From NCBI GenBank assembly GCA_037190965.1, contig JBBCKI010000061.1, positions 1 through 30,155 on the forward strand: a stretch of 30,155 nt of DNA, written 5' to 3'. Positions 6,875-25,456 of this stretch are shown here, in pieces. The stretch is from Chthoniobacteraceae bacterium. GTDB taxonomy: Bacteria > Verrucomicrobiota > Verrucomicrobiia > Chthoniobacterales > Chthoniobacteraceae. The translations under genes and the position numbers were made by a program. Within the stretch, counting starts at the first letter, position 1. Each line of letters begins with the position of its first letter. The notes under the pieces are model-generated. The model was not told the origin of the DNA. It made no database searches and saw only the letters and a program-made list of their open reading frames with translations.

Positions 6875-6891
6875 CATCGAGAAAATCGATG
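6875..6891. promoter_or_regulatory. Putative LysR (LTTR) recognition box
   Basis: Inverted repeat CATCGA-GAAAA-TCGATG containing T-N11-A (T6877..A6889) in the divergent intergenic gap. A second dyad, TTTCGA-GTGAG-TCGAAA, lies at 6845..6861. Confidence 0.6.
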
Positions 6892-6899
6892 ATCTCTCC

Positions 6900-7810: not shown

Positions 7811-10039
7811 CTAAATCAATCCCTTTTTAAGGCGGATTGCCCAATCGCTACCCATCAGCAGGACGAGCAGAACCAGCAGGGTGGAGTTATCCCAGAGCGA
7901 GGCGGTGATGGTGCGGGTGACCGGCTTTTTATCCAGCTTCTCCGGATTGGGCCACGTGTTGCGATCCAGCCGGTCGATGATTCGGCCGCCTGTGCTGGCG
8001 GCGATGCGGCTCAGGTTATTCTGGTTGACGCTCGCGCCGGTTTCGTCGGGAGTATGAGCCACGTCGACTGCGGTTTGCGAGGTTGCCACCACTCCACCCT
8101 CTTTGATCCATTCCGCCATGAATAGATAACTTCCCGGCTGGGAGGCGTCGAGTTTGGCGGTAAAGCTGCGTTGTTTTTTGGGATCAGGGGTAAAGCTAAT
8201 CGGCAACTCCCGCTGGTCGGGAAGCTTCACGCTTCCGCGAAGCTGGGGGCGGCTCTCGGTGAGCGAGGGGGGGACATCAAGCTGGGCGCGCAGGATTATT
8301 TCCTCGCCAACTTCATACGCGGTCTTCTCGAGCTGAAGCCAAAGGTGATTTCCGCCTGCCGCAGGGCGGGCGGGTGCAAGGGCGCGCAGGGTTTGCTGCC
8401 AGAAGAGGGTGTAAGGCGTCACGCCGGGTTGCGCTTCGGTTCCGCTCATCTGCCACTTCCATAGGGTATCGGTGCCGATGAATAGTACCCGGCCTTTGCC
8501 TGCCGCGTGTTCCGCCGCGACGATCAGGGGACCGTAGTTGTTTTTCAATTGGGGGGCCTCCAATAGAATGGTGGCGGCAGGTTTCTTGTGCGACACGAGG
8601 TAGATCTGATCCATCGCCGGAAGATCGGCCCATGCTTTCGGCCCGGCATTGAAAAAGAACGACGATTGCGCGAGCGCGGGGGGGACCTGAACTTTGACGG
8701 GCCCCGCCTGTGGCTCGCCGCTCTTCGGTGTAAGCGCAACCGGCAACAGCGCTTCCATCTCGGGCACACTAGCCAGGGAGTTGAGATGCGGGCCTGCAAG
8801 GACGATCAGGGACTTGCCTTTGTTGACCACCAGATCGTAGATCGACTCCGTCAAGCCGGGAGCCCAGCCGCGAGGGTCCACATCGCCCAGCACGATGATA
8901 TCGAACAGGTTAAGATCGCCCCCACGCGGGAACGCGGCAAGCTGGTTCTGCCGGTCCGCATCGGCAAACGCCACGTAAGTCTGTCCGCCCCGGGAGAGGA
9001 ACCCCGTGAAGCTGAAGCTGGGATCGTCGCCCAAGATTCGCCGGAGGTATTTGAACTCCCAGCGCCAGGTATTCTCGATCATCAGGACTTCATGACGGTT
9101 GCCGACGACTTCCACCGTCATCTTGCGCGAAGGGGCAGTTCCGGGGAATCCTTCCAGCACGATCTCATATTCGCGGAAGCCGCTTTTCGCAGGGCGATAG
9201 ACGAGGCTCGCCTGTTGTTCATGTTCTTCCGAGGCAAACTGGACGTCCCGGGAGGCGACGACCTCCCCGTTTTGCTTCAGGCTCAACGTCAAGAGACGGT
9301 TGGCCAGCCCGTGATGCCGCAGCATCACCAGAAATCGGGATTCCGAGCCGAGCAAAACGCGGCGGGGGCTCTGGATGGAAACGATGCTGGCGTTTCCCGC
9401 GCCGTCGCGGGCGCTCTCCACCGTGTGCGGCGCGAGGGTGTCGATGGCGATGCCCAGGCTGCGGGCCAGTTCCACCACATCCTTCTGGCTCCGGTCGTTG
9501 CCATCGCTAGCCAGCACAACCCGGGCGGAACCGGCCTCTTCCCCGGCCGAGTAGCGATATTGCTCCCATGCGGAGGTGAGCGCCTCGGCATAGCGGCTCG
9601 TCTGGATCATTGGCTTTGTCGCCCCCAACTCTTCCCGTTTGATTTGGTAGGCATGTTGATCGAAGCGGAACCAGTAAACCTGATTTCCCTTCGCCAGCTT
9701 ATCGCCGAGCCCGCTTTTCTCCATCCAGGCAGCCGTCTCCTGGAAACGCGTCTTGCCGTCCGGCGCGTCTGCGGTCGCCATGCTTCGGGAAGCGTCTAAC
9801 AGTACGAGCAGGGCGGGGCCTTGGTCAGTCGTTCGTTTCCAAACGAAGGAGGGCCGCAAAAGACAGACCAGGAAGAGGAGGATGATGCCGATCCGCATCC
9901 CGGCAAGGAGATAGATCCAACGGGCCGGAACCTGCCGCTGCCTCAGGATCAGGAGACCCCAGCCCAGCAAGGCAAAAAGAGCCACCCCGACACTAGCGAT
10001 CAGGGCCGGTGAAAATAGAGGATTCCAATCAACCTTCAT
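7811..10039 (-). CDS. Membrane protein with vWA domain and glutamine-amidotransferase-like (GATase1-like) domain
   Basis: Two N-terminal TM helices ending CLLRP, MIDAS LLDASRSM..VLASDG, an Ig-like segment, WRWEFKYLRRIL..FDIIVLGDV..GKGRVLFIGTDTLWKW, LSRIAASTGG, and a C-terminal TM helix ending DWAIRLKKGLI. Confidence 0.8.
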   Translation of the reverse strand: MKVDWNPLFSPALIASVGVALFALLGWGLLILRQRQVPARWIYLLAGMRIGIILLFLVCLLRPSFVWKRTTDQGPALLVLLDASRSMATADAPDGKTRFQETAAWMEKSGLGDKLAKGNQVYWFRFDQHAYQIKREELGATKPMIQTSRYAEALTSAWEQYRYSAGEEAGSARVVLASDGNDRSQKDVVELARSLGIAIDTLAPHTVESARDGAGNASIVSIQSPRRVLLGSESRFLVMLRHHGLANRLLTLSLKQNGEVVASRDVQFASEEHEQQASLVYRPAKSGFREYEIVLEGFPGTAPSRKMTVEVVGNRHEVLMIENTWRWEFKYLRRILGDDPSFSFTGFLSRGGQTYVAFADADRQNQLAAFPRGGDLNLFDIIVLGDVDPRGWAPGLTESIYDLVVNKGKSLIVLAGPHLNSLASVPEMEALLPVALTPKSGEPQAGPVKVQVPPALAQSSFFFNAGPKAWADLPAMDQIYLVSHKKPAATILLEAPQLKNNYGPLIVAAEHAAGKGRVLFIGTDTLWKWQMSGTEAQPGVTPYTLFWQQTLRALAPARPAAGGNHLWLQLEKTAYEVGEEIILRAQLDVPPSLTESRPQLRGSVKLPDQRELPISFTPDPKKQRSFTAKLDASQPGSYLFMAEWIKEGGVVATSQTAVDVAHTPDETGASVNQNNLSRIAASTGGRIIDRLDRNTWPNPEKLDKKPVTRTITASLWDNSTLLVLLVLLMGSDWAIRLKKGLI

Positions 10040-12254
10040 TGTTAACTCCTTGCTTCTGCAGCAATCCTTTGGAGACCCGGCTTTCGGCCAGCATCGGGTT
10101 TATCTTCGGGCAAAGCCAGTGAACGAGAGCCATCTCCCCCATCAGGATCAGGCAGGCGAGCCCTGCGAACCAGGGCCAGAGGAGGATGTTGCGGTCGCTG
10201 ACGGCGGGCGGTTTGCCCCCTTCTTCCGACGAGCGGTTGGTCGTGACGGTTTCAAATTTGGCGGGCGCCCACCATTGCTCCAGCAGCTCAGGTTTCATCC
10301 TGGCCAGATTGCTATCGCTACGGCCTGTCTGAACGACGAAGGTGCGCGTTTCGGCGCTTCCTTCAATTTTGATTTCGTAAATCCCGGCTTTTTCCGGGGA
10401 GTCCAGTTGCATGACAAACTGCCCGCCCACTCGGCGCAGGGTAGGGTGCAAGCTCTCGCCGGAGGGCTCCGTCACGCTGATCTGGGGCGCTTTGTCAAAT
10501 GAACCGATGGGATAGACAACGGGCTCTCCCGCCATGAACATCCGCCGGGCAACGCCCCCGGAGAGATGGGCGACCAGCCTGTCGAGCAGTGGGATGAAAC
10601 TGGGGCGGCGCGGCAGGTCGCTCCAGGCGTCATTGGCCGTCATATTGAAGAGGACGACTTTGCCGTCGCCGAAATCGCTTTCCAGAATCGCGGGCACCGA
10701 GCTGCCGATGCGGGCCAGAACACGAACCGGCGTCTCCTGTGGCCATGCGCCGAGGCCGAAGTAGCCCGTCACCCGCGTTTGCGGAAAGTCGTTGTACGCG
10801 GGATCAAAGAGATTCGCCAGCAGGGGGTGATTCCAATCGATGGAGGTCAATCGTACCGTTTCTTCACGGACGCGCCGGTTCTCAATCGCCTGGTTGAGGG
10901 CGACCGGTGAAAGACTCGCGGCGGGGTTGGATGAGCGATGAAGTCTTTCATTGAAGAAGGAGACATTGACCGAAGGCCCCAGAAAGATGGCCAGGCCACA
11001 CCCGGCCCGAACGCGGCTCTCGATGGCGTTGAGGTGCGCATCCGAAATGCCGTCGGGCTCAACCATGATGAAAAGGTTCGCCTGCGCGATCTCCTCGTCG
11101 GTCAATTTTTGAGGAGAGGCGATACGGATTTCCAGCCCTCCTTTCTGGACCCGAGCGAGGGATTGCAGCGCCGAGCGGAGATGCAGCCCCGGTTGCAATG
11201 CTTTGACCTGGGTCACCTCGGACTCGATTACCAGGACATTGAGAAGCCCGCGCGGATTAAGATTAAGGAGGAGGGAATCGTCATCAGGCAAACTGTCGCC
11301 GGGGCGCATTTCGACGCGGGCAATCTTGCCGCGCAGATCGTATCCGGCAGGAAGCTCGATCTCCAGCGGGGTCAAAAGCCCCGGCCTGAGGAGGCCGCTC
11401 GTCGAAAGCTCGGGCAGACCGGCCAGCCCCGTGACGTAAACCGAGCGTTCGGCATCGCCATCCCCGGACCAGCCCGCCTCCACCCGGATCGCGCTGATGC
11501 GCCCCTCCGCATTTTCCACGGCGGCGGCATCGGCAAGCCAGGCATTCCGTATCGTTGCGGGAGCCACATCGATCACCCGGACCGTCAGGTTTTTGGCATT
11601 GTCGGAAAGGAAGCTGGAAATGGCGCTCTGCGACCAGTTGCTTTGCAGGCTGTTGGTAATGAAGATGATTTCCACGTTCGCCTTGTCGCGCCGGGTGCCG
11701 AGCATCGAACGGACAATCGGGAGCGCCGCGCCCAGGTCGCCCTCCTGGGGAAGAGCCTCCGCATTGCGAAGCGCCACCGCATACGCCTGGGGATCAGCCG
11801 TCAGCGGCCCGAGCGCCTTCGGAGTCCGGGACGCCAGCACCACCGTCGTTCGATCCCCCGGCCCCGAGGCGGCCAGCAACGCTTCGGCGATGGAGCGCCC
11901 CCGGTCGAAGGGAGTCTGCCGGGGGGCTTCCCCTTCCTTGCCGGGCTCGCGGTAAGTCATCGTTCTGCTTCGGTCGAGAATAATGAACCGCTCACGAGGT
12001 TCCCCGCTGCCCAGGTTCAATACCGGCCGCGCCAGAACCAGCACGAGCAGGCTGACCAGCGCCGCCCGGAAGAGAAACAGAAGGATCTGGTGCCACTGCA
12101 CGCGTCGGGTGAGCTTGTGCTGCGACTCGCGAAGCCACCGGATATTGGTGAACGCGGTCCGGCGCGTCTTGCGGGGCTTGAAAATATGGACGAGGACCGG
12201 TACCGCCAGAAGCAACATTCCCATTAACGCCCAGGGATTGAAAAAGCTGATCAT
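10029..12254 (-). CDS. BatA N-terminal domain + vWA domain membrane protein
   Basis: BatA-type N-terminus (FFNPWALMGMLLLAVPVLVHIF..FTNIRWL..LLFLFRAALVSLLVLVLARP), vWA IILDRSRTM, later GDGKVVLFNMTANDAWSDLP..FIPL, and a C-terminal TM helix LWPWFAGLACLILMGE. Confidence 0.85.
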   Translation of the reverse strand: MISFFNPWALMGMLLLAVPVLVHIFKPRKTRRTAFTNIRWLRESQHKLTRRVQWHQILLFLFRAALVSLLVLVLARPVLNLGSGEPRERFIILDRSRTMTYREPGKEGEAPRQTPFDRGRSIAEALLAASGPGDRTTVVLASRTPKALGPLTADPQAYAVALRNAEALPQEGDLGAALPIVRSMLGTRRDKANVEIIFITNSLQSNWSQSAISSFLSDNAKNLTVRVIDVAPATIRNAWLADAAAVENAEGRISAIRVEAGWSGDGDAERSVYVTGLAGLPELSTSGLLRPGLLTPLEIELPAGYDLRGKIARVEMRPGDSLPDDDSLLLNLNPRGLLNVLVIESEVTQVKALQPGLHLRSALQSLARVQKGGLEIRIASPQKLTDEEIAQANLFIMVEPDGISDAHLNAIESRVRAGCGLAIFLGPSVNVSFFNERLHRSSNPAASLSPVALNQAIENRRVREETVRLTSIDWNHPLLANLFDPAYNDFPQTRVTGYFGLGAWPQETPVRVLARIGSSVPAILESDFGDGKVVLFNMTANDAWSDLPRRPSFIPLLDRLVAHLSGGVARRMFMAGEPVVYPIGSFDKAPQISVTEPSGESLHPTLRRVGGQFVMQLDSPEKAGIYEIKIEGSAETRTFVVQTGRSDSNLARMKPELLEQWWAPAKFETVTTNRSSEEGGKPPAVSDRNILLWPWFAGLACLILMGEMALVHWLCPKINPMLAESRVSKGLLQKQGVNNEG

Positions 12255-12263
12255 AGGGAAAAA

Positions 12264-13250
12264 CTACCCGCGCATCTTCGCCCGGCGGTTCAGGTAAGCG
12301 GCGATGGCCGTGTCATAAGGATTGCGGGTGTCGATCAACTGGTAATCCACGCCGGATTCCATGAACGCCTTGCGGTAATAGGCGGTCGTCTCGCGAAGTT
12401 TTTCGAGGTAATGCTCGCGGAGCGCGGCAGGATCGATCTCGAGTTCCTCACCGGTCTCGACATCTTCAAGTACGGTGGCTCCCGCGAACGGAAACTCGAG
12501 CTCTGCGGCATCGAGGAGATGGAACACGATGACGTCGTGCTTGTGCCCTCGAATGAGGCGGATCGCCTTGGCGGTTTCCTCGGGAGAATCGATCAGGTCG
12601 CTGACGATGACGACCAGCCCGCGACGCTTGATGTTCCGCAGCACGCTCTTCACGCTGGTGCCGATATCGGTACGGCCTTCCGGCTTCTGCCGCATCATGA
12701 TCTGCATCATCTGCCGCAGGTGGCTCGAACGGCAGCGAGGCGGGACGAACATCCCCGGCTTGTCGCCAAAGAGCGAAAGCCCGACGGCATCCTGCTGTTT
12801 GAGCATCAGATAAGCCAGGCAGGAGGAGAGGAAACAGCCGTAGTCCCACTTGGTCACCCCGGTCGTCCCGTAGTCCATCGATTGGGAGCAATCCAGCAGC
12901 AGGTAGCATCGAAGGTTGGTTTCCTCCTCGAATCGCTTCACATAATAGCGATCGGTGCGGGCATAGACTTTCCAGTCGAGGTACTTCAGGTCATCGCCGG
13001 GAACGTATTCACGGTGATCCGCGAACTCGACCGAGAAGCCATGAAAGGGGCTCTTGTGCAATCCCGTCAGAAACCCTTCCACGACCACGCGTGCCAGCAA
13101 CGGAGACGCGCCCAGCCGCGAAAGCGCGGCGGGATCGAGGGCATTGCGGGGCGCGTTCGCCCGGCCTGCCGTGGCGGCTTCACGGCCAAGCGGGGAGGGC
13201 GAGAACCTTTCCAGGCTCTGTTTCAGACGCCGTTTGAGAAGGGCTAGCAT
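12264..13250 (-). CDS. DUF58 domain-containing protein (vWA-like MoxR partner)
   Basis: Motif GLHKSPFHGFSVEFADHREYVPGDDLKYLDWKVYARTDRYYVKRFEEETNL, then LLDCSQSM and VIVSDL. The start was placed at ATG 13250, just downstream of the MoxR stop. Confidence 0.92.
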   Translation of the reverse strand: MLALLKRRLKQSLERFSPSPLGREAATAGRANAPRNALDPAALSRLGASPLLARVVVEGFLTGLHKSPFHGFSVEFADHREYVPGDDLKYLDWKVYARTDRYYVKRFEEETNLRCYLLLDCSQSMDYGTTGVTKWDYGCFLSSCLAYLMLKQQDAVGLSLFGDKPGMFVPPRCRSSHLRQMMQIMMRQKPEGRTDIGTSVKSVLRNIKRRGLVVIVSDLIDSPEETAKAIRLIRGHKHDVIVFHLLDAAELEFPFAGATVLEDVETGEELEIDPAALREHYLEKLRETTAYYRKAFMESGVDYQLIDTRNPYDTAIAAYLNRRAKMRG

Positions 13251-13261
13251 GGCGGGGGAGA

Positions 13262-14263
13262 TCAGGAATGAGTGCGCTCGGGAATCTCCTTGAGGAGCTG
13301 GTGGACAATCGTGTCGGTCTTCATCCCCTCCGCCTCGGCGGTAAAGCTCGCCGCGATACGGTGGCGCAGCACAGGTAACGCTACATGGCGGACATCGTTG
13401 CACGAGACGTTCACCCGCCCATTGAGCGCGGCATAAGTCTTGGCGCAGAGGATCAATGCCTGGCTGGCGCGCGGGCCCGCGCCCCAACTGACGTTTTCGC
13501 GGATGAACGCACTCGCGCCGCTCTCTTCCGGGCGCGTGCCGCGCACGAGATCGACCGCGTAACCGGTAACGTGCCGGGATACCGGAATCCGCCGGATCAG
13601 GTGCTGATAGAAAAGGAGCCCGGCGGCATCGAGAATCGGATCCACCACCTGGGTTTCGTCGGAGGTGGTCCGGAAGACAACCTCCTCTTCGTCTTCCACC
13701 GTGGGGTAGCCGATTTGCGAGTTCATCAGGAACCGGTCCTTCTGGGCCTCCGGCAGCGGATAAGTTCCCTCCTGGTCGATCGGGTTCTGCGTGGCGAGAA
13801 CGAAGAAGGGAGCCTCCAGAGGATAGGTCACGCCGCCGCTGGAAACCTCCCGCTCCTGCATCGCCTGAAGCAGCGCGGCCTGCGTTTTGGGCGGGGTACG
13901 GTTGATTTCGTCGGCAAGGATGACGTTGGTGAAGATCGGTCCCGCGACAAAACGTGTCTCGCGTCGGCCCGTCTGGTGATCCTCCTCGATCACATTGGTG
14001 CCGATGATGTCGGAAGGCATGATATCGGGCGTAAACTGGATCCGCTTGAACTGAAGCGAGAGCGTTTGGGAAAGGGTGCTGATCAATAGTGTTTTGGCCA
14101 GGCCGGGAACCCCCTCCAGCAGGTTATGGCCCCCGGCGAAAATGGTCGTCAAGAGCTGCTCGACAACCGCACGCTGGCCGACGATCACCTTGGCGATCTC
14201 TTTCAACATCCGTTCATTCAGGCGGCTCAGGTTCTGGATATCCTCTTCAATAGGATCGCTCAT
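13262..14263 (-). CDS. moxR: MoxR-family AAA+ ATPase
   Basis: Walker A LLEGVPGLAKT, RIQFTPDIMPSDI, Walker B LADEINRTPPKTQAALL, ATQNPIDQEGTYPLPEAQKDRF, WGAGPRA and VLRHR. Start at ATG 14263 (MSDPIEED). Confidence 0.96.
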   Translation of the reverse strand: MSDPIEEDIQNLSRLNERMLKEIAKVIVGQRAVVEQLLTTIFAGGHNLLEGVPGLAKTLLISTLSQTLSLQFKRIQFTPDIMPSDIIGTNVIEEDHQTGRRETRFVAGPIFTNVILADEINRTPPKTQAALLQAMQEREVSSGGVTYPLEAPFFVLATQNPIDQEGTYPLPEAQKDRFLMNSQIGYPTVEDEEEVVFRTTSDETQVVDPILDAAGLLFYQHLIRRIPVSRHVTGYAVDLVRGTRPEESGASAFIRENVSWGAGPRASQALILCAKTYAALNGRVNVSCNDVRHVALPVLRHRIAASFTAEAEGMKTDTIVHQLLKEIPERTHS

Positions 14264-14280
14264 AAGATAATGGTGGTTGG

Positions 14281-15819
14281 TTAGTGGCTCAGGCAGTAGG
14301 TGATGAGATTGAGGGTGACACGGAGGGCATCGCGGCTCTCGAGTCCTTTGGCATAGGCGTTCGACTCGCGGTTGAGCCCGCTCATGAGATCGTAGGGAGT
14401 GTAGAGCACCGCAAGGCGCTGGTTGATGAATAGCCCGAAAAACTGCGGAGTTTTCAAATCGGGTTCGTCCCTCAGGACCGGCGAGGTGTACTCCACTTCC
14501 TGTACGGGGTTCCACCCGGCCATGAAGAGTGCATGGGAGGGAGGGATCGGGACGAGCTCATGGTTTGGAAAGGCTCTCTTGAGCTCCCGCCGGAAGGCGA
14601 TGTCGAACGGCTTGAGCCCTGCGGCGGCACTGGCAATGATCGTTCCACCCCGGTTGATGTATTCCGCCAGCCCTTTCTGTTCCTCGGGGCTCAATTCGAA
14701 ATCATAATGCCCCGTCATGAAGACCAATGGATAGTCTTTGAGTTCCGCGTCATTCAACGCGACGGTGTGCGGGGAATAATCGACGCCGATCCCCGTGTTG
14801 TCCCGCAGGCCCGTTGCGATGCTGTTTTGCAGACCGGGATTCAACGACCAACTCCCCTTGTAACGGACTTGGGCGAACCGGAAAACATCCCCCTTGTTGC
14901 TCTCGCCCTCATACTCGGGAAACTCCTGGGCCAAGAAGCGCCCATATTCCGTGCTGCCAAGGACATACGCCACCAGATTCACCCCGAGGCGTACCGCCCC
15001 TTCGCCCACGATATGCCTGCCGGAGGGGTTGTATTCCTGGCCGCTCCAGGCGGTGCCGAGGCCGTAAGGCACCAGCATGATGGCGGCACGCGTTCCGATA
15101 TCGATGGAATAGACCGGCGGCGACTGGACAGACTGGACGCCGTTGATGAGCGTGTTGACCTCCGAGATCCGTGCGTGCGAATTGAACGCCGGGTGGTCCG
15201 CCGGCAGCTTTACAAAGCCCCGGTCGGGGAAGACTTTCCGCATCTCGCGGATCACGGCCCTGACAAACTCCTCGCGCCCCCGGGCGGCATTGAAGATGAA
15301 AGTGCCGCCCTTGAGCACGAACTCGCGGATGTTCTTCACCTCCGAATCGCGCAGGACGAAGTCATAGTCGCCCGTCATATAAAGAATTGGAATGTCGAGC
15401 GGGTCGAAGCCTTGAGAGGAGAGGGGAGCGGTGGCGTACTGATAGTTGTTGCCATCCGCCAGCCGGGTATTGGTCGATTGAACGAGGCTCGACGCGTCGT
15501 TCTTGAAACTCTCCCATTGGGGGAAGACCTGCACCGTCCCGTCGGGGTGCACATACTTGAGATCCTCCCCATACTGCACCTTGTAGATGATGGTGAGATT
15601 AGTCGGCGGCGGGGGCTCCCGCTGCTGCGTCTTGCGCATGGCCACGCCTTCGTCGATCCCGATGCTGGTTTCCTCGCCGCCGGTCTGCGTGCGCGGAGGC
15701 GCCTTGTGCGCGGGCGGCGGCTTTCCGATTGCCGGGGGAAAGTCGACGGTTCGCTGAGCGAAGCCCCTCGCAAGGGGTAGCGAGAGCGCCGCTAGAAGGA
15801 TCATCCAAGAGCGCCTCAT
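14281..15819 (-). CDS. Secreted protein with two tandem DUF4159-like domains
   Basis: Signal peptide MRRSWMILLAALSLPLARGFA. Two internal repeats: PILYMTGDYDF..IREFVLKGGTF..REMRKVFP..LPADHPAF and PLVFMTGHYDF..LAEYINRGGTI..RELKRAFP..IPPSHALF. Confidence 0.8.
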   Translation of the reverse strand: MRRSWMILLAALSLPLARGFAQRTVDFPPAIGKPPPAHKAPPRTQTGGEETSIGIDEGVAMRKTQQREPPPPTNLTIIYKVQYGEDLKYVHPDGTVQVFPQWESFKNDASSLVQSTNTRLADGNNYQYATAPLSSQGFDPLDIPILYMTGDYDFVLRDSEVKNIREFVLKGGTFIFNAARGREEFVRAVIREMRKVFPDRGFVKLPADHPAFNSHARISEVNTLINGVQSVQSPPVYSIDIGTRAAIMLVPYGLGTAWSGQEYNPSGRHIVGEGAVRLGVNLVAYVLGSTEYGRFLAQEFPEYEGESNKGDVFRFAQVRYKGSWSLNPGLQNSIATGLRDNTGIGVDYSPHTVALNDAELKDYPLVFMTGHYDFELSPEEQKGLAEYINRGGTIIASAAAGLKPFDIAFRRELKRAFPNHELVPIPPSHALFMAGWNPVQEVEYTSPVLRDEPDLKTPQFFGLFINQRLAVLYTPYDLMSGLNRESNAYAKGLESRDALRVTLNLITYCLSH

Positions 15820-17381: not shown

Positions 17382-19986
17382 GAACTGCGTGATCTCCCTG
17401 GATAAAGTTGTTGAGGAGTTCCACTTCCCTGTCGGTGACGGGCATGACTCTCAGGCCGTCCCATTGGTAGGAGCCTGCGATGCCTTGCATTCTTAAATGC
17501 AGGTCCGCGCTTTCCGCATCGGGAGCACGAAGGAGAAAGCCGATCTTCCGCCATTGCCCGAAGGTCCGATCGATCGCCAGAGTTTGAAACGCCTCCGACT
17601 TGGGGGGCGTTTCACGCAGTGTCAGGGCCGCCGCGACCTCGGGCCGGAACCGCTCGCCAAGCCCGGCGGGTTGTTCGCGATACCAGATCTCCACCCAGTA
17701 TTGGCCGCCCGGCTCCAGATCGTAGAGGGATTGCGAGAGTCGGGCCACTTTGGGGTGGCTGGATTGCGCCAGCCCGGCAACGCCGCGCCCGCGAATGCCG
17801 AGGCCCTCTTCCAGAGCCAGCTCGGAGAGATTCACCGTCTCTTTGTCCCCGAGATCGAAGTCGGCTTTGAACCCCGAGAATATAGCCGTCTTCCCGCTAG
17901 CCAGCCGCTCGTCAATCCGCGCGACCGTCGCGGCCAGTTTGTGCTGGTCGTAAAATTCGGGGTAGGAATTCTTGATCCCTTCAAACAGCTCCTGCGATTT
18001 CTTCAGGTCGCCCAGCCGATAAAAGCTCTGGGCGATGCCGTTGAGCGCTTTGTCCCGGTAGCTGGCCCATTGGGAAAGCTTGAGCAGCACCTCGTAGTTC
18101 CGAATCGCTTCCGGGTAACGCCCTTCCTTGTAATCCACCTCTGCCCGGAGCAGCCGGAACAGCCCTTCCAGCTTTTGCTCGGGATGCTCAAGCTCCAGAC
18201 GGTCGAGCAACGTCCGGCTCTCCCGAATACTCCCGGCGCGAAGTTTTTGTTCCGCGACGCGAAGGAGCGCGCCCCGTTCGATCGCCTTGACCTGGCCGGT
18301 AGCGGCAAACGTGTCCCCGCCAAGGGTGGAGGCGAGCCGGTAGCGTTCCTCGGCCTGGTTCATGTCGCCGGTCTCCAGAAACATGTCGCCCCATTCGATG
18401 ACCGCCCGTCGAAGTTCGGGCCGTTTGACTCTGCGGTTTTCCTCCACCAATTGCTCGTAAAGTTCGCTAGCCTCCTTGAAGTTCCGAAGGTACTTCCAGT
18501 GGATGCGTGCCAGGGTTTGCGTGGCGCGGAAGTGGAGACTGGCCGATCTCCCCAGATCGCTGAACATCTTCTCTTTCAGCTTCACCGCTTCGGCCGCCTG
18601 CCCTTCTTCGGCGAGGGCTTCCAGCAGCGCCGCATAGAGATGAGCCTTCCTGGGCCCGTCGATCTCCTTTTGAGCCAGAAGGTGTTGCGCCAAGGCCGCC
18701 TGGAACTTCCATCGCCCGGGCTGTTGCGAGGCGACGACGAAATCGAAAATCTTGTCGATCCGCGCCGGGGTCATGGTCTGCCAGCGGGTTTGCGCGAGCA
18801 CCTTGACCGCTTCTCCCAGCGCGCCGGGCCCCGAGTTGACCGGGGGCTCATCCACAAAAATGCGCTGACGGAATGGCGGGAGACTCCCCGCTTGCAGCGT
18901 CACCAGGTATTCGCCTGGTTCGAGGTAAACATGCTGCACGGCATCGCCGGACGCCGTGGTGCCGTCCCCAAAATCCCATCGCAACTGGGCCGGGTTGGAG
19001 AAACTGCCGTGAGCCTGAAATCGGGTCAGGTAAGCGCTTGCGCCCAGCGAAACGAGGGCGTCCTCCACGCTGCAAACAAACGCGGCGACGGGCGCATCGA
19101 AGGACTCGACGGCGCGCACCTCGGCGACCGGGGCCGAGAGGAAGTTGCCGGGCGGGATTATCTCCCATTTCGTCTTGCCGGGAGGCTTCCATGCCAGCGC
19201 CGCAACACCTGTCTGCGCGGTGGCCCCGCTGAAATGGAAATACTCAAAAGGGAGCAATCCCGGTTTGAGTTCCATCTCATGCCATTCTTCCACATTCTTG
19301 GGAGCCTGCCGTTTGCCGGTTTGCTGAAAGATCAACTGCCGGTTGAGAAAAAGAAAAGAGGCGTCGTCCGCGCTTGCCGAAAAGCGATAGGTGCCCGCAG
19401 CGTCGATCTTCAGATGCCCCCGGTAAACCGCCGCAAAACTGCCGGGCTGCGCGCCACGGAAGGGGTTTCCACGACCGCGAACCTGAGCCACGAGGGCGTT
19501 CCCCTGGATCTTCGGAGTCGCGGTAAGCTCCGCGAGTGCCTCCGCCCAAGTGTCGAAGCGATCGCCGGCAAAGGGGCGGACCTCCATCGTGGGAGCCCGC
19601 CCGGAGGTGGCCCCTTGCGCGGAGGTGGCCCCTTGCGCGGAGGTCACGGTCGGGTTGCCCATCGAGACCCAGAATCGACGGTCGCTCCCTTCGCCTTTGA
19701 ACTGAATGATCGTGCTCCCCTCCGGGTTGCTGGAGATGACGTTGACGGGAAGAAGCTTCCCGGCCTCGTTTTGTACCTGAAGGTCGGCTCCGTCGGGCCT
19801 GCACCAGCCCCCTGTGGGAATGCTGGCGACCATCCAGCCATCGCTGCTCTTCCATAGATCCTCCTCGCCCACGCGTTCCAGGACCATGCGAACCGGCCTG
19901 CCGGGCAGTCGTTCGGGCGCGGCAAATGAGAGGGGGGAGAGCGCGAACGCCATCCCGAAAAACAAAGCGATCGGTTTATGGCTCAT
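17374..19986 (-). CDS. Secreted multidomain protein: PA14 + PKD + TPR repeats + C-terminal carbohydrate-binding-like domain
   Basis: Signal peptide ending SFA; PA14 (FAAVYRGHLKIDAAGTYRFSASADDASFLFLN..LAWKPPG); PKD (WDFGDGTTASG..HVYLEPGEYLVTL); TPR helices (YKEGRYPEAIRNYEVLL, ALNGIAQSFYRLGDLKKSQELFE); beta-sandwich tail (LEPGGQYWVEIWYR..QWRK..WDGLRV). Confidence 0.8.
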   Translation of the reverse strand: MSHKPIALFFGMAFALSPLSFAAPERLPGRPVRMVLERVGEEDLWKSSDGWMVASIPTGGWCRPDGADLQVQNEAGKLLPVNVISSNPEGSTIIQFKGEGSDRRFWVSMGNPTVTSAQGATSAQGATSGRAPTMEVRPFAGDRFDTWAEALAELTATPKIQGNALVAQVRGRGNPFRGAQPGSFAAVYRGHLKIDAAGTYRFSASADDASFLFLNRQLIFQQTGKRQAPKNVEEWHEMELKPGLLPFEYFHFSGATAQTGVAALAWKPPGKTKWEIIPPGNFLSAPVAEVRAVESFDAPVAAFVCSVEDALVSLGASAYLTRFQAHGSFSNPAQLRWDFGDGTTASGDAVQHVYLEPGEYLVTLQAGSLPPFRQRIFVDEPPVNSGPGALGEAVKVLAQTRWQTMTPARIDKIFDFVVASQQPGRWKFQAALAQHLLAQKEIDGPRKAHLYAALLEALAEEGQAAEAVKLKEKMFSDLGRSASLHFRATQTLARIHWKYLRNFKEASELYEQLVEENRRVKRPELRRAVIEWGDMFLETGDMNQAEERYRLASTLGGDTFAATGQVKAIERGALLRVAEQKLRAGSIRESRTLLDRLELEHPEQKLEGLFRLLRAEVDYKEGRYPEAIRNYEVLLKLSQWASYRDKALNGIAQSFYRLGDLKKSQELFEGIKNSYPEFYDQHKLAATVARIDERLASGKTAIFSGFKADFDLGDKETVNLSELALEEGLGIRGRGVAGLAQSSHPKVARLSQSLYDLEPGGQYWVEIWYREQPAGLGERFRPEVAAALTLRETPPKSEAFQTLAIDRTFGQWRKIGFLLRAPDAESADLHLRMQGIAGSYQWDGLRVMPVTDREVELLNNFIQGDHAVHE
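19602..19644. repeat. In-frame 18-bp tandem repeat (about 2.4 copies)
   Basis: CGGAGGTGGCCCCTTGCG x2 plus CGGAGGT, encoding TSAQGA-TSAQGA-TS in the linker before the PA14 domain. Confidence 0.9.
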
Positions 19987-20656
19987 AGGTGATTCTCAGT
20001 TTCCATTGGTCCGGGACGCCGAGCGGCGCCTGGAAGCCGACGATCTCCTGGAGATCTTCGGTACAAAGCATCCAGCCATATTCTTTGGCGCTGCCCGAAT
20101 GCCAGAGTTCCACGTCGCTAAGCACGTTCAACGCAATCTCCCCGGATTCATTGGTGAGCCTCATCTGGACCGAAGGGCGCGAGGCCCGGTCGCTGCCAAT
20201 CCCTCGCGCGCCCGGTTCCGTCCACATCGCGGCTTCGGGGCGCAAGCTGCGGAACCGGTGGTTGATCCCCACACCCCACGGTTGCTGCAATCTCCAGAGG
20301 TGAAGCCTTGCATTGCGGGAGGAAACTTTCGGGGCCAGCGGAAGAAGAAGTTCTGCGCGAACGATGCGTTGGTCTTTGGGGATCCGGTCGAGTTTGAACC
20401 TCAACAGAATCGCTTCCTGGCCCGAGGCGTTTACGATTTTGGAGTCAGAAAAGTGGGCATGGACATGCGTGCCGGCCCAGCCATGCGCCGCCGCTTGCGA
20501 GGAGATCGTGGCAAACAGATCGCAATCGTTGAGCGTCAGGGTAATCGTCCGCGCCTGCGCGAAGCACGACAAACTTAGCCAGAGAAGCGCGGCCAGTAAC
20601 TTGAAGTGCCGAATGGCCGGGACCAGTGCCGATGGGTTCTTAATTCGCGGCTTCAT
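19976..20656 (-). CDS. Secreted DNRLRE-domain (CBM96-like) protein
   Basis: Signal peptide, ILLRFKLDRIPKDQRIVRAELLL, WTEPGA, LNVLSDVELWHSG..YGWML, and terminal KLRITY: the pattern of DNRLRE domains. Confidence 0.72.
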   Translation of the reverse strand: MKPRIKNPSALVPAIRHFKLLAALLWLSLSCFAQARTITLTLNDCDLFATISSQAAAHGWAGTHVHAHFSDSKIVNASGQEAILLRFKLDRIPKDQRIVRAELLLPLAPKVSSRNARLHLWRLQQPWGVGINHRFRSLRPEAAMWTEPGARGIGSDRASRPSVQMRLTNESGEIALNVLSDVELWHSGSAKEYGWMLCTEDLQEIVGFQAPLGVPDQWKLRITYEP

Positions 20657-20657
20657 C

Positions 20658-21803
20658 CTATTTTACCGGGACATAAAGGCGGTTGAACTTTTCGGAGTAA
20701 ACCGGCGCCGCCGCTTCGTTTTCGAGGTTGTCTACCTTGTGCATCCGCGCCTTTCCCGAGGGCCACCCTTCCTTGTCGAGGTCGATGACAACCACCGCGC
20801 GCGGACTTCCGACGGCCACCTGATTTCGTGGAGTCATCACCACCGGGCGGCTCTTGAACTCCACTCCCTGGAGAGTGACCGTGCGCGGCAACTGGGTGAG
20901 GATTCCATCCACATGCTCCATGGCAAGGAAGGCGCCGGAGCCAATCGCGCTGAAATAGTAGAGAGGCCGTTGCGGGTGGGAGGCCACTTCCACAATCGCG
21001 GTCGTATCCGGCACAAGGATCTGGCGAAGCACCTGTGATTCTTCCAGATTGACGAAACATGGGCCCGAGAGCGCTCCGAGGAGCACGGTCGATTTCGGTC
21101 CGGGCACAATACTGTTGCCGACGAAGTAGAAAAAAGCCCGGGTTCCCTGCGGCTCGGGCCTTGGTGCTCCCGCGGCCTGCGCGGGGAGACCCTGTGCCGT
21201 CAGCGAATAGTGGAAAAGGGAGACGGGAACTTTCTTGGGACCGTCGATGCCGCTGGGGATGAACAGCCGCTCCTGCCTGCTGTCGAGGGCCAGCATTCCC
21301 ATTTGTCGATTGTAGCCGAAATCCGGCCCCTGGACGAGCGCCGAGGCCAACTGAAGCCGTTGCTCCGAGCAACGATAGATCACGAGATGCGGCAGTTGTT
21401 CCTGGGCTTGATGCGTCGCGTCACTGGCAAAATTCTGCCACACGTAGAGCAGCGGTTGACGGGGATGAAATAACACGCTGACCACGCGGCACTGCGCGTT
21501 CTGGTTCGGCGCGGAACGCGGCAGATCGATCGTTTGGGCCGGGGCATCTTCCACGGAGCCGTCTTGCTTGAGCGGGTAGACAAGCAGTTTGCCATCCCGG
21601 GTGCCGACGACCAAAAGGCGGTGGGTATCGCTAACGTCCGCCGCCGTGGACCCGGGCGCGATCACCGACGTCAGGGCACTGTTGTCGTTCATCGTCTCCG
21701 GAACTACTGGAACTAGCGAGGCGGCGTCCAGAGCATGGGTCGCCAAGGCAACGACGGCAATCAATGCGGAGATCAGTTTTCGAATGAAAGAGGAGCGGTT
21801 CAC
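20658..21803 (-). CDS. Secreted beta-propeller protein (lactonase/WD40-YVTN-like)
   Basis: GTG at 21803 overlaps the upstream TGA (GTGA) and is followed by a signal peptide. Blade-like repeats: ADVSDTHRLLVVG, VLFHPRQPLLYVW, LALDSRQERLFI, VASHPQRPLYYF, VYSEKFNRLYV. Confidence 0.7.
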   Translation of the reverse strand: MNRSSFIRKLISALIAVVALATHALDAASLVPVVPETMNDNSALTSVIAPGSTAADVSDTHRLLVVGTRDGKLLVYPLKQDGSVEDAPAQTIDLPRSAPNQNAQCRVVSVLFHPRQPLLYVWQNFASDATHQAQEQLPHLVIYRCSEQRLQLASALVQGPDFGYNRQMGMLALDSRQERLFIPSGIDGPKKVPVSLFHYSLTAQGLPAQAAGAPRPEPQGTRAFFYFVGNSIVPGPKSTVLLGALSGPCFVNLEESQVLRQILVPDTTAIVEVASHPQRPLYYFSAIGSGAFLAMEHVDGILTQLPRTVTLQGVEFKSRPVVMTPRNQVAVGSPRAVVVIDLDKEGWPSGKARMHKVDNLENEAAAPVYSEKFNRLYVPVK

Positions 21804-24800
21804 TGCGTGGTCAATTTTTCGTAATAGTCCTGCACCGCTTTTTCGTACCCGGGCAATGGCTGCCACGCGGGCTCGTCCAGGACGCGGCCCTGGACGCGAC
21901 GATCTTTCGGCAGGCTTTGATGGAAGCCCGCATAGGCCCGGTTGATGACCTGCAATTCGCTCCTCAACTGATCCATCGCTTCCTTCTGATGTCGGAAGAG
22001 ATCGGACTCCGGGGTTTCCTTGAGCCGTTCGAGGTTGGCCGCGATTTTGTCGATCAAATCGTCGAGACGCTCGGTGGGTAGGAAGAGGTTGCGCAGTTCT
22101 TTGCGGATGGCTTTGGCGCGGACGACGATCTGCTCCTGCGTGCTATTGGAATCCTGCAACAGAGCGGCCACGCGAGGGTCCATGGGCGCGCCCTGGCGGT
22201 CCACCAGCTTTGCCACAGCCTGCGGCTTCTCCATCTTGTCAGCGTAGTCGTCGCGCCACTGGCCCGCGTCCATGGTGGCCCAGCCTTTGTCCTGGGAATC
22301 AACCCGCTTGCCCCCCATGCCGGGCGAAGACCCTTTCTGAGGATCGTCGCTCATGATCTCTTTCATGATCCCCTGCTGCATCGGGGCGTTCTCCAGCCCC
22401 ACCTGCACCTCGTCCCTTCCCCGGCGATTGACGGTGACTTGATCGACATTGCGCCCGTGGCTGCGGGCTCCCTGCCGACCGGTGCCGGATGCGCCGCCGC
22501 TGCTGGTGGTTGGCGGTTTCTGGTTGCCGGTGCGCGAAGAGGCGGAAAAGGAATTGAGATTGCCGCCCATCTTGCCGATGTCGCCGCTATCGAGAATCGT
22601 GAAGGCCGCGTTGGCATTGAGGATATCGAAATCCTTCGATTCCTCATCGGCCTCATCCAGCAACGCGCCAACAAGGTCGAGCAGTTCGGGAATCGGCGGC
22701 GGGGTGATATTGTTGGGGGTTAAATCACTGGAGCCCGGCTGCCGTTTTGTGGGGCCTCCCGGTTCGGTCGATAGCGTAATGACCGACTTGGAACGGTCTT
22801 CTCCCGCGCCCGCGTGAATCGCCAGCCGCGCCTTGGTCTGTTCATCCAGCAGGAACGGCGTCGTATCGACCTCGGGTGGCCTCACCTTTGCCGGTCCGGC
22901 CTGCCGCGTCTCTTCGATTTTGAGGAGCGTGCCCGGCGAGACGGCGTTGTCATCTTCGACGCCGCTGTCGGCGAGGGCCGAGCGCAACGCTTCGATGGCC
23001 TGTTGATCGGCTACGGAGGCTTTATCCTCCGCCCGTGCGAGGACCCGCTTGGCCGCTTCGGCAGTGGCGTTTTTAAGATCCGCAAAAATCTTCTGGAGCA
23101 ACTGGGCCGCCTTCGTCTGTTCGGAAGCGGCGTTCTGCCAGGCTCCGGAGCCGAGTTGCTCGGCCGCCTGCCGCATCGGATTTTGGACATTGTCGCCGAG
23201 TTGATTGGCGGCGTCGGCAAAAGCGGCTCCGAGCGTCGGCTCCACTTTGACGATCCGCCCTGCCACGGCAAGAACGGCCCCCCGGGCCAGCTCAGTGGTC
23301 GCAACTAACCTCTTTTGGCGATTAGCGGCGGCCCTGCTTCGCTGTTGGATCATCGCGGGGTCGAGCTTTTCCTGCTGACGCTTCAGGCTCTCTTCACGCA
23401 ACACCTCCTGCCTTGCGGCCAGCATACCGACGAAGTCCGTCATGTGATTGTTCTCCCAATCTTCCCGGAACTTTCCGTACTGCTGCAAGATCTCGCCGAG
23501 GCTCTTGATAATCCGCTCCTGGATGAGCCGCGCCTCCGCCAGTGCGGCCCGTTTCCGCTGGGGATTGTCCTGATCGCTAGCCCCTTCGAGAACGAGGGTT
23601 CCCCGCACCATTTCGGCATCGGCCAGCATTCCCAGCGAGAAGCGCAGGTTGCCCGACGTCTCCGCCATCTCCCGCGCGATCTCCGTCGTCCTGGCCCGTA
23701 ACTTCTCCTGCTTTGCCGCGAGATCCTTGGCCGCCTTCCGTAGCGCATCGAGATTGTCCTGATCGTCCCATCGCAAGCCTGAGTCCGGCTCCAGCTTCCG
23801 GATCCACGCGGGCAACGCGTCGGCCAGTTGCTGTTGTTCGGGGATCAGCCTGCGCAGCTCGGTTTCGGTTTTGAGGATCTGTTCGTAGAGAAGCTGCAAC
23901 CGCGAGCTCTGGCTTCCCACCGTGATGACGGAGAGCTGGCTCTCGGTCCAGGCCGAGCTGTCTTTAAGCGGGTCGGTATCCTGCGCCAGCAGGGCGACCT
24001 CGATCCTGTCCCCTTCCACGACGCCCAGTGCTTGCAGATCAAACGCCGCTTCCCCCTCCCAGCGGGATTTACCGTCAACCATCCATTCCTGGACTTTCCG
24101 CCACTCCTTCTCCGCGCCATCGGCTTTGCGGATGGCCAGGGCGACTCGAGTCAATCCGTAGTCATCCTCCGCAACCAGCGTGAGAGGCAGGCTCATGTCT
24201 ACTTCCCCTTCCTGTTCACGCTCCAGGCCTTCCAGTCGAGCCTGCGGCGGCTGATCTGCCAGCACGCGGAGCTGGTAGGACGGGCTTTCGAGGGTCTTGC
24301 CATTCTGCAAAAGCTCGAGACGGTATCCAGCCACATCCTCAAAGAGCAGTTCCCCGGCGGCTTCTGCGGCATTGACGCTCAAAGGCACTTCGACAACATG
24401 GATGCCCCCATCCGCGCCCTGTTTCTGGAGGAGCAGGGTAGCCTTCTCCACGGGCCGGTTGAACTGAAACGAAACCTTCGCGCGGCTTCCAAAGAGCCCC
24501 TCAAGATTGCCCGATGCGGTTTCAATTTTTGCCGGAGGGAGTTTGGTATACGCTGGTGGCTGGATCTCGGCACGCACGGTTCGAAGCGACGCGGGCGCGG
24601 GGACGGTGATGGTGTAAGATTCGCTTTTGAAGTCGCCCCCGCGGACGGAATAGACAATGTCCTCCTGGACTTGTTTGAAAAGGGTGGAGGCCTGTGTGGC
24701 TCCCGGCTCCAGGGTAAGAATCTCCATCTTCCGCTCCCCTCCGGTTGAATGGATGACGGTAATCGTGTCCGGTGCTTCTCCCTCGATCTTGATCGTGAGC

Positions 24801-25456
24801 TTGACGTCGCTTCCCCGTGGGGCCTCCACATTGCCCGGTTCAATAGTGAGCCGCGTGCGATAGGCCGGGTCCACCTTCGCCAGTGGCAGGAGGATGCGCA
24901 CCAGCGAGCTTTTGAATCGGCTTCCCTCAAGCAGAAACAGAACCGCGCCCCCCAGGAAAACGCCGAGGATGGCTCCTGAGCCGATCAGCATCGGGCGGAG
25001 GCTTGCCGCCTGCTTGAGTTCGATATTCTTCAGACGTTGATGATTCTCCCGAATCACCGCTTCGCTCAAACGCACATCGGGTACGCGCTTGTCCCGGGCC
25101 AACTGGATCGTATTGATCAGGCGGTTGTCGGTTTCGGCGCTCCTTTGCTCAATGGCTAGCGCGATCTGCTCTTCGGTAAAATGCGTTTGACGCCACTGGC
25201 GGCGGATGACCCAGGCCGCGCCCAGGAGACTGCATACCAGCACCGAAAAAGCCGCCGCGCGCCACGCGACAGGCAGGTGAAAATAGGAGTCGGCCCCCAG
25301 CATGCCAAGCAGCGTCGCCGCGATGATCGCGACGGCAAACGCGCAAGCCTTCCACAGAAGAAGCCTGCGCGAACGCCGGGCATTGCGGGCGACGAGAAGG
25401 CGCAGGTCATCAAGGAGGACCTGGATCGACTGGGACCGGGGAGGATCGACGATCAT
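21800..25456 (-). CDS. Large membrane-anchored protein with Ig-like domains and long coiled coil (DUF4175-like)
   Basis: Three N-terminal TM helices, beta-rich Ig-like domains (IQPPAYTKLP, DQPPQA, AEDDYGL), a long Q/E/A-rich helical region, a Gly/Ser-rich segment, and C-terminal PGYEKAVQDYYEKL. Start placed at ATG 25456 (1218 aa). Confidence 0.75.
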   Translation of the reverse strand: MIVDPPRSQSIQVLLDDLRLLVARNARRSRRLLLWKACAFAVAIIAATLLGMLGADSYFHLPVAWRAAAFSVLVCSLLGAAWVIRRQWRQTHFTEEQIALAIEQRSAETDNRLINTIQLARDKRVPDVRLSEAVIRENHQRLKNIELKQAASLRPMLIGSGAILGVFLGGAVLFLLEGSRFKSSLVRILLPLAKVDPAYRTRLTIEPGNVEAPRGSDVKLTIKIEGEAPDTITVIHSTGGERKMEILTLEPGATQASTLFKQVQEDIVYSVRGGDFKSESYTITVPAPASLRTVRAEIQPPAYTKLPPAKIETASGNLEGLFGSRAKVSFQFNRPVEKATLLLQKQGADGGIHVVEVPLSVNAAEAAGELLFEDVAGYRLELLQNGKTLESPSYQLRVLADQPPQARLEGLEREQEGEVDMSLPLTLVAEDDYGLTRVALAIRKADGAEKEWRKVQEWMVDGKSRWEGEAAFDLQALGVVEGDRIEVALLAQDTDPLKDSSAWTESQLSVITVGSQSSRLQLLYEQILKTETELRRLIPEQQQLADALPAWIRKLEPDSGLRWDDQDNLDALRKAAKDLAAKQEKLRARTTEIAREMAETSGNLRFSLGMLADAEMVRGTLVLEGASDQDNPQRKRAALAEARLIQERIIKSLGEILQQYGKFREDWENNHMTDFVGMLAARQEVLREESLKRQQEKLDPAMIQQRSRAAANRQKRLVATTELARGAVLAVAGRIVKVEPTLGAAFADAANQLGDNVQNPMRQAAEQLGSGAWQNAASEQTKAAQLLQKIFADLKNATAEAAKRVLARAEDKASVADQQAIEALRSALADSGVEDDNAVSPGTLLKIEETRQAGPAKVRPPEVDTTPFLLDEQTKARLAIHAGAGEDRSKSVITLSTEPGGPTKRQPGSSDLTPNNITPPPIPELLDLVGALLDEADEESKDFDILNANAAFTILDSGDIGKMGGNLNSFSASSRTGNQKPPTTSSGGASGTGRQGARSHGRNVDQVTVNRRGRDEVQVGLENAPMQQGIMKEIMSDDPQKGSSPGMGGKRVDSQDKGWATMDAGQWRDDYADKMEKPQAVAKLVDRQGAPMDPRVAALLQDSNSTQEQIVVRAKAIRKELRNLFLPTERLDDLIDKIAANLERLKETPESDLFRHQKEAMDQLRSELQVINRAYAGFHQSLPKDRRVQGRVLDEPAWQPLPGYEKAVQDYYEKLTTQ

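Follow-up and report, generated by a model that had tools for sequence, protein, structure and literature searches.

A conserved ten-gene MoxR/vWA cassette of Verrucomicrobiota and Planctomycetota as a candidate trans-envelope machine

The stretch of DNA analyzed here, called the window, covers positions 1 to 30,155 of contig JBBCKI010000061.1 (contig C61 of a 4.2-Mb genome, 97% complete, handle G000) from a Chthoniobacteraceae bacterium (assembly GCA_037190965.1). It carries ten genes, named g1 to g10 in the order of transcription, that combine a MoxR AAA+ ATPase and proteins with von Willebrand factor A (vWA) domains with a set of predicted exported proteins. Our analysis indicates that these ten genes form one conserved unit. 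By analogy with the MxaRSACKL system, the unit may be an ATP-driven machine spanning the inner membrane, by which exported glycan-binding proteins would be fully folded, loaded with metal or assembled, a reading to which we give a little less than an even chance.

A tightly packed gene set conserved in two phyla

The ten open reading frames (ORFs) all lie on the minus strand, from 25456 down to 7811. Both the co-orientation and the five overlaps and 1-17 nt gaps announced in a preliminary description of the window were recovered, with junctions of -4, +1, -11, -8, -4, +17, +11, +9 and -11 nt from g1 to g10. Two starts had to be chosen. That of g2 was set at 21803, which retains a signal-like N-terminus (our crude gene caller picked 21692), and that of g6 at 15819, giving 512 aa. 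The database copy P0001 (507 aa) starts at 15804, with which the g5-g6 junction would be +11 instead of -4 nt. Genome-wide, 33.6% of the 2,152 co-oriented junctions found by the crude caller measure at most 17 nt; nine such junctions in a row have p ~5e-5, assuming that junctions are independent.

A GTDB scan anchored on g6 yielded 65 loci from 78 pattern matches, in Planctomycetota and Verrucomicrobiota. Judged by their titles, all are from MAGs or uncultured bins, and no cultured carrier was found among them. At loci with at least 9.3 kb of upstream sequence, g5 and g4 were each present in 34/38, g3 and g2 in 33/38 and g1 in 32/38. Likewise, g7 was found in 26/31, g8 and g9 in 25/31 and g10 in 24/31 of the loci with at least 9.3 kb downstream. 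All ten genes lay within about 10 kb in 15 of the 24 loci having both flanks; the order was the same in 14 of them and g4 and g5 were swapped in one. Across all loci, gaps above 900 nt occurred at 32/629 junctions. The reverse test, anchored on the exported protein g5 in metagenomes, gave 63 loci, some of them near-duplicates. Among those that could be tested, g6 was present in 43/49, MoxR in 28/34, g4 in 45/50 and g1 in 21/25. Soil metagenome runs also carry DNA matching the window.

The exceptions were then informative. In genomes lacking g7-g10 orthologues downstream of g6, a g10 orthologue was located elsewhere in 5/5 cases; in three of these five it lies upstream of g6 at a distance of 11-12 kb, on the contig and strand that carry g6, which fits a permuted order. 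Where upstream genes were missing at the locus, g5 and g1 orthologues were still in the genome (5/5). Because the missing gene tested persists in the genome in 10/10 exceptions, the ten-gene set is co-inherited even when split. The preliminary description had staked itself on the exported genes co-occurring with the MoxR core, and this is what both anchor directions and all the split cases show.

These data bear directly on the possibility that a Bat-like core and unrelated exported genes were brought side by side by chance. The cassette was not found in 5/5 genus-mates with a g6 query, and a lone sigma-factor fragment adjoining its 5′ end suggests rearrangement. However, the same genes recur in the same order across two phyla and stay together in genomes where the operon is split. 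Chance juxtaposition is already refuted by the conservation data and we consider it almost certainly wrong.

A quick g6 tree of 58 rows, with SH-like approximate likelihood ratio support only and the careful search unfinished, clustered by phylum (6 changes as compared to 21.9 after shuffling), the window g6 grouping with Verrucomicrobiota sequences. Frameshifted (L069), X-containing and partial rows were excluded. The clustering fits old inheritance with heavy loss. Recent transfer between the phyla was set aside as neither shown nor needed, given the clustering by phylum, with which transfer is still compatible. Several titles of metagenome-assembled genomes (MAGs) among the sources (Klebsiella, Akkermansia, Kuenenia) look like mislabels.

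The MoxR motor and the vWA membrane pair

The domain labels of the preliminary description proved strong for MoxR, DUF58, BatA plus vWA, the two DUF4159 domains, PA14, PKD and TPR, and partial for DUF4175 (about 157 residues of g1, 36 bits). In the window proteins, G8 (E 0.013), DNRLRE (19 bits as compared to 34) and the beta-propeller (E 0.005) stayed below cut-off, and the G8 label for g5 was dropped. The vWA and GATase-like labels of g10 had no Pfam match above cut-off in g10 itself, its domains being visible via relatives only.

The protein g7 (13262..14263, 333 aa) is a MoxR AAA+ ATPase, predicted cytoplasmic (AAA_3, 203 bits, plus AAA_lid_2). Its translation shows sensor motifs and intact Walker A and Walker B motifs, and the protein is 65-75% identical to the MoxR of other cassettes. 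It is followed by g8 (12264..13250, 328 aa), a DUF58 vWA adaptor also predicted to be cytoplasmic (Pfam, 197 bits). [quoted passage not shown] MoxR AAA+/vWA systems are recognized by adjoining vWA partners with a MIDAS (DxSxS-T-D), and both g8 and g10 are such partners.

The last two genes encode membrane proteins of similar build. The 741-aa product of g9 (10029..12254) comprises a BatA double transmembrane (TM) anchor, a vWA domain, an Ig domain, a GATase-like domain, a second Ig domain and a C-terminal TM helix (Pfam BatA and VWA_2, TIGR02226). That of g10 (7811..10039, 742 aa) has a double-TM anchor, a vWA domain with intact MIDAS, an Ig domain, a GATase1-like domain without the Cys, another Ig domain and a C-terminal TM helix. 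The two are full-length paralogues (HHalign 98.7%, 578 columns). In g10 the DxSxS motif is kept in 26/26 orthologues and D179 in 25/26, and the vWA domain matches integrin I-domains. In g9 the vWA domain resembles BatB structures (4jdu, 3ibs), and the MIDAS of the window copy is degenerate, with G172 and N201 at positions that are mostly T (19/27) and D (26/27) in the family. In the GATase-like regions of g10 and g6, the elbow columns show no conserved Cys. GATase1_like was found in 11/11 scanned proteins of the broader g10 family as compared to 0/4 of the subtype. One apparent g9-g10 fusion, at locus L032, merges two TM helices half-way along, which would reverse the topology; we took it for a deletion or an artefact of assembly and left it out.

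The loop between the first two TM helices carries on average 8.7 K/R versus 0.3 D/E in g9 and is also basic in g10. The vWA domains are placed in the periplasm, and the loops in the cytoplasm, because these basic hairpin loops fit the positive-inside pattern. For the BatA-domain protein BB0173, a periplasmic-vWA topology was shown experimentally (PMC5700661). With MoxR and DUF58 predicted on the cytoplasmic side, the trans-envelope arrangement proposed earlier is borne out as a predicted topology.

Each C-terminal TM helix has an invariant acidic residue near its cytoplasmic end, E707 in g9 (27/27) and D732 in g10 (26/26). Both are candidate MIDAS ligands. A complex prediction of DUF58 with residues 1-85 of g9 scored 0.35 versus 0.00 for the best control; the runs agreed on at least 98% of contacts and the partner had a predicted local distance difference test (pLDDT) value of 66. 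In our calibration, 18/157 solved complexes and 2/215 mismatches passed with scores at or below 0.60, these being all the mismatches that passed. The model thus hints weakly at a DUF58-BatA contact, in a score range where wrong models outnumber right ones unless the contact was probable to begin with.

The long membrane protein g1 and the core subunit g6

The first gene, g1 (21800..25456, 1218 aa), encodes a DUF4175-like membrane protein with three predicted TM helices (Pfam DUF4175, 36 bits; hydropathy). The AlphaFold2 model (residues 31-1218, mean pLDDT 73.8) consists of TM helices, three Ig-like domains, a long bundle of helices, a stretch without a fold and helices at the C-terminus. Foldseek returned tandem-Ig matches only for this model, PDB profile searches with g1 and g3 returned nothing, and an Atlas search with the C-terminal part of g1 gave only unnamed clusters and a DUF4175 lead at 0.83. 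The Gly-rich segment at about residues 921-1090 is unfolded in the model yet is the most conserved region of the protein (0.69 as compared to 0.55 for the Ig domains). This combination suggests that the segment folds on a partner.

The protein g6 (14281..15819) is a predicted exported protein with tandem DUF4159 domains (Pfam, 208 bits in two stretches; PDB match 4i66), which we take to be class I GATase-like. Its orthologues are 60-85% identical, and 23/23 have a signal-like N-terminus in a crude hydropathy test. In split operons g6 remains with g7 or with g1, and DUF4159 relatives are widespread. The protein behaves as a core subunit, not as a client. The preliminary description had counted five signal-peptide-bearing clients; because g6 behaves as a core subunit, only four exported proteins, g2 to g5, are left as specific to the subtype.

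Besides its full cassette (L064), one genome has a second g1-g6 pair that stands alone (L062:6234-11482), which suggests that the two genes make up a sub-module. Two genomes have a paralogous MoxR system directly adjoining the cassette (L044:15631-21076, L071:16486-21482), its DUF4159 protein being 27-28% identical.

Four exported proteins specific to the subtype

The protein g2 (20658..21803, 381 aa) is predicted to be exported and is probably a beta-propeller, with weak matches only (a Pfam propeller, E 0.004; 6-phosphogluconolactonase 6nau, E 0.057). Next comes g3 (19976..20656, 226 aa), a predicted exported single domain of DNRLRE/CBM96-like type. The window protein is below the DNRLRE cut-off, 26/35 family members match at E<=0.01, and the Atlas neighbours are CBM96 clusters at 0.96. 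Our search found no longer, fused forms of g3, which is weak evidence. The product of g4 (17374..19986, 870 aa) is predicted to be exported and combines PA14, PKD and TPR domains (Pfam) with additional domains at both ends; PDB profiles also match its PA14 and PKD domains. An acidic pair of PA14, at residues 207-208, is D/E in 36/36 and D in 31/36 sequences. Finally, g5 (15816..17381, 521 aa) is predicted to be exported and is modeled, with a pLDDT of 92.6, as a right-handed parallel beta-helix with a C-terminal beta domain.

Signal-like N-termini were seen in 31/33 (g2), 34/34 (g3) and 35/42 (g5) sequences by the same crude test, as compared to 0/37 in the g8 control. For g4 the count was 10/27 only, many of the chosen starts being truncated. 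In one genome group (L017, L023, L027, L033, L034, L035, L044), g4 ORFs extend 200-660 codons further N-terminally (Ala-rich, possibly coiled coil), and L016, L018 and L030 have g5 proteins some 200 aa longer.

In this genome g1-g5 are single-copy. The single-copy state and invariant content of g2-g5 are better matched by fixed subunits, or by a single dedicated client complex, than by a repertoire of clients. We also tried an integrin/TGF-beta-like reading, combining the vWA domains, the propeller and a propeptide-like g3; only 2/35 g3 rows match TGFb_propeptide and the resemblance was dropped as one of fold.

In the preliminary description these proteins acted on a polysaccharide or surface structure. 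The polysaccharide side of this claim draws on folds (the CBM96-like g3, the PA14 acidic pair, the beta-helix of g5) and one co-occurring hydrolase family described below; the cassette encodes no enzyme activity, transporter or synthase.

The best fold matches of the g5 model are AlgG (Z 28.9, root-mean-square deviation 2.7, 289 aligned residues) and AlgE4 (Z 27.4). AlgK is the TPR partner of the beta-helix protein AlgG, and in the cassette TPRs are carried by g4. One could therefore view the cassette as a scaffold for modifying or exporting a self-made exopolysaccharide in the manner of AlgG/AlgK. The motif DPH, which we take to be the catalytic motif of AlgG/AlgE mannuronan epimerases, is however missing from the g5 family (0/42); what g5 shares with these enzymes is the parallel beta-helix fold. 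Tailspikes, Vag8 and NosD follow closely behind, the g5 scores being close to those of tailspikes and adhesins. The cassette contains no synthase, glycosyltransferase or porin. CBM96 binds alginate (PMC9971899), which would suit such a scaffold, and overall we find this explanation very unlikely.

Another possibility is ATP-powered glycan capture or uptake, in which g2-g5 would bind polysaccharide outside the inner membrane while an arm made of MoxR, vWA proteins and g1 pulls or releases it. Three of the four subtype-specific proteins have folds often used in glycan binding, g1 has a long arm with a conserved, unfolded tip, and GH39-like hydrolases co-occur with the cassette. Yet neither an outer-membrane barrel nor a sugar transporter was seen in the cassette or next to it, and the MoxR/vWA mechanisms described in PMC12276312 and PMC9976466 act on proteins. 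We rate glycan capture as rather improbable.

Likeness to known MoxR/vWA systems

The closest mechanistic precedent would be MxaRSACKL rather than Bat. Among analogues with an exported client, MxaRSACKL has been studied best. There, a MoxR protein and three vWA proteins (MxaS, MxaC, MxaL) are needed for Ca2+ loading into the periplasmic methanol dehydrogenase (PMC12276312), a client encoded in the same cluster. The cassette likewise has a MoxR ATPase and several vWA proteins. In contrast, it is without MxaF, MxaI, MxaJ and PQQ genes, has four unrelated exported proteins in place of the dehydrogenase, and adds DUF4175, DUF4159 and GATase-like domains. No MxaF/MxaI dehydrogenase client was found in the window, nor is one conserved in the flanks.

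Bat operons of Bacteroides, Leptospira and Borrelia share MoxR, DUF58, the BatA double-TM anchor, a periplasmic vWA domain with MIDAS and a TPR protein with the cassette, as described in PMC3557215 and PMC5700661. The likeness to Bat noted in the preliminary description extends to this MoxR-DUF58-BatA-domain vWA set. The vWA proteins of the cassette are about 740 aa long with Ig and GATase-like domains. As to a vWA-TPR membrane protein of BatB/BatC type, a vWA domain resembling BatB structures is in g9, and the TPRs sit in the exported g4, at 23 bits as compared to the BatC cut-off of 175. No BatD match was obtained among the ten proteins at E<=0.05, whereas the same library finds BatD at 99 bits in another operon of the genome. 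That operon (G000:C10:61062-68848) is a canonical one with BatA, BatB/C-like and BatD proteins; it lies elsewhere in the genome, and the cassette is not the Bat operon. In its working, the cassette would by analogy be a maturation system of MoxR/vWA type, standing outside Bat for BatD and outside Mxa for MxaF.

Nearest in core architecture is RL3499-RL3502 of Rhizobium leguminosarum, reportedly a 'broadly conserved operon' that also encodes DUF58, a BatA/DUF4159 protein, in which DUF4159 is said to be fused to BatA, and a GATase-like membrane protein. It has four genes as compared to ten, and DUF4159 is a free tandem exported protein in the cassette. Its MoxR-proper ATPase has an envelope role, RL3499 being important for membrane integrity and morphology (PMC3893208). 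That operon is reportedly needed for a normal envelope, whereas the cassette is rare and accessory.

The other genes of Arc2 (PA4317-23) of Pseudomonas aeruginosa reportedly belong to membrane families different from those of the cassette. Like the cassette, Arc2 is a multi-gene MoxR/vWA operon; it protects against a colicin-like toxin (PMC8926400). The roles of RL3499 and of Arc2 raise the alternative of an envelope-integrity or anti-antagonism complex, in which MoxR energy would repair or clear damage to the inner membrane or periplasm and g2-g5 would sense the threat. The patchy distribution of the cassette fits defence genes. Its content is however invariant, and nothing in its well-conserved sequences points to a diversifying sensor. 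A Bat operon and further MoxR, DUF58 and DUF4159 genes are already present in the genome, and the association with GH39-like proteins would be left unexplained. We think this alternative unlikely.

In NorQD, the vWA adaptor sits on the ring and uses its MIDAS on an acidic residue of the membrane target (PMC9976466). NorQ-NorD and CbbQ-CbbO resemble the cassette in pairing an AAA+ ring with a MIDAS-bearing vWA adaptor; as far as described, these are two-component systems acting on the cytoplasmic side, with neither exported subunits nor a vWA relay in the periplasm.

All six core gene types, MoxR-DUF58-BatA/vWA-vWA/GATase-DUF4175-DUF4159, are present in the window. Six of the genes are a widespread core of unsolved mechanism and the four exported genes, g2-g5, are specific to the subtype. 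The g10 family counts 5,484 representatives at E<=1e-30. Within it, about 43 full-length representatives score above 670 bits and other full-length members at most 410 bits with a g10 profile, part of this gap being expected since the profile was built from subtype members. The set is thereby distinguished as an undescribed subtype, in agreement with the earlier proposal. It is also rare: the g5 profile found 1/300 other genomes of the host phylum and 0/300 of the phylum of a planctomycete carrier, and a close g6 orthologue occurred in 3/60 relatives and 0/5 genus-mates. No description of the ten-gene cassette was found in the literature searched, as judged from listings and abstract starts, with most subscription journals and all supplements outside its scope. 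Besides the canonical Bat operon, the genome has an ABC-transporter-linked MoxR cluster (C32:165-11368) and scattered DUF58-BatA-GATase1-like and DUF4159 genes (C60:29064-31625, C28:159757-165178, C23:74055-77049).

A giant, predicted secreted GH39-like family co-occurring with the cassette

A predicted secreted protein of 1,150-1,400 aa with invariant glutamates is a recurrent insert at cassette loci. Its family has no glycoside-hydrolase Pfam match, and its own profile matches 5JVK (E 1e-7), which is GH39wh2 (PMC6933502). The gene stands between g3 and g4 in L024 (L024:1206-5216), L025 and L114/L117, just after g10 in L020, L069 and L081, before g1 in L103 and near a lone g5 in L120. These loci come mostly from one related Verrucomicrobiota group. 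The genome under study has three unlinked copies (G000:C18:40457-44011, C34:53115-57242 and C34:63888-67286). The two on C34 belong to a run of same-strand genes that also encodes one PEP-CTERM, one TPR and one LamG protein.

The family was found in 13/24 distinct cassette genomes (G349 and G355 counted as one genome) versus 17/299 and 7/300 background genomes (24/599 together). In the set of relatives, it was present in 3/4 cassette versus 6/57 non-cassette genomes. These counts include kin that are not independent and MAGs of varying completeness, and have no control family, so that a Fisher test exaggerates the enrichment. In a single case, genome G362, 17 GH39-like matches and a second g1-g6 pair occur together.

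A possible mechanism and its weight

The following scheme is proposed for an ATP-driven maturation machine. A MoxR hexamer would bind one DUF58 adaptor, as NorQ binds NorD. DUF58 would dock on the cytoplasmic face of the g9/g10 pair, candidate contacts being the basic BatA loop, E707 of g9 and D732 of g10. The TM helices might then carry ATP-driven movement to the vWA domains in the periplasm, and there an acidic residue of a partner would be gripped by the intact MIDAS of g10. In the periplasm, g1 could serve as a spanning arm, its conserved Gly-rich segment folding on binding, and g6 as a scaffold. The proteins g2-g5 might be a subtype-specific head or a dedicated client recognizing glycan or glycan-active proteins, and the giant GH39-like proteins would be the best candidate clients or partners. 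A full version of this scheme, namely a ten-protein machine of the Planctomycetes-Verrucomicrobia-Chlamydiae (PVC) bacteria in which MoxR force, relayed via DUF58 and a pseudo-symmetric pair of vWA proteins, would serve to mature or display glycoside hydrolases of the giant GH39-like family, is improbable as a whole.

Several observations weigh against maturation of exported glycan-binding proteins. The client relation is drawn by analogy; no NCBIfam Mxa model matched any of the ten proteins, and g2-g5 have no recognized catalytic or buried-cofactor site like that of MxaF. Surface proteins that have nothing to do with glycans commonly contain beta-helix, PA14, PKD and DNRLRE folds, and the Z-scores of g5 are nearly tied across unrelated functions. 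The MIDAS of g9 is mostly retained across its family, two ligands being lost in the window copy. The other genes in the flanks vary between loci, and no transporter, synthase or carbohydrate-active enzyme was conserved among the 93/152 longer flanking ORFs scanned. As to the GH39-like family, it occurs without the cassette in the 24/599 background genomes and in 4/5 genus-mates, none of which has a g6 orthologue, and it was not found in 11/24 cassette genomes. Because it is present without the cassette and was not found in these 11, the family is not dependent on the cassette. Its enrichment may reflect shared niche, kinship or genome size.

How a cytoplasmic MoxR protein acts on periplasmic vWA proteins is an open problem for Bat, Mxa and RL3499-type operons, and a 2025 article on Mxa states that the mechanism still needs elucidation (PMC12276312). 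As a fixed and self-contained list of parts for which candidate contact residues and a family of candidate clients can be named, the cassette is rebuildable in E. coli for testing. If the GH39-like link is true, it would be a route by which PVC bacteria deploy polysaccharide-degrading enzymes; with these proteins as clients, the cassette would be the first client-defined member of the MoxR-DUF58-vWA-DUF4175-DUF4159 class and a new means of deploying such enzymes. The weight of the finding is limited by the core itself being common and its function predicted only.

Surroundings of the cassette

In the window, a promoter and terminator scan gave promoter-like sites at chance level (3 as compared to 3.5 expected), no tRNA was found, and the G+C content showed no clear island signal (0.57-0.64 in the cassette, 0.53-0.64 in the flanks). 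Near the 5′ end of the cassette (window 25801-27850), a Ser/Thr kinase with a terminal SecDF-P1-head-like domain overlaps a 146-aa ORF downstream of it, which presumably resembles only the C-terminal half of an extracytoplasmic function (ECF) sigma factor and has no paralogue elsewhere in the genome by tblastn. The kinase/ECF-sigma fragment is possibly a rearrangement scar. In two unrelated genomes, type II secretion-like genes lie downstream of partial cassettes (L014:7352-13705, L017:15036-21476); GspE is present in both and GspF was confirmed in L014, and the coincidence may be due to chance. On the other side of the cassette in the window (4334-7790), a LysR regulator is divergent from three genes, encoding a fatty acid hydroxylase family member, an unknown protein and an HTTM-DCC1 fusion.

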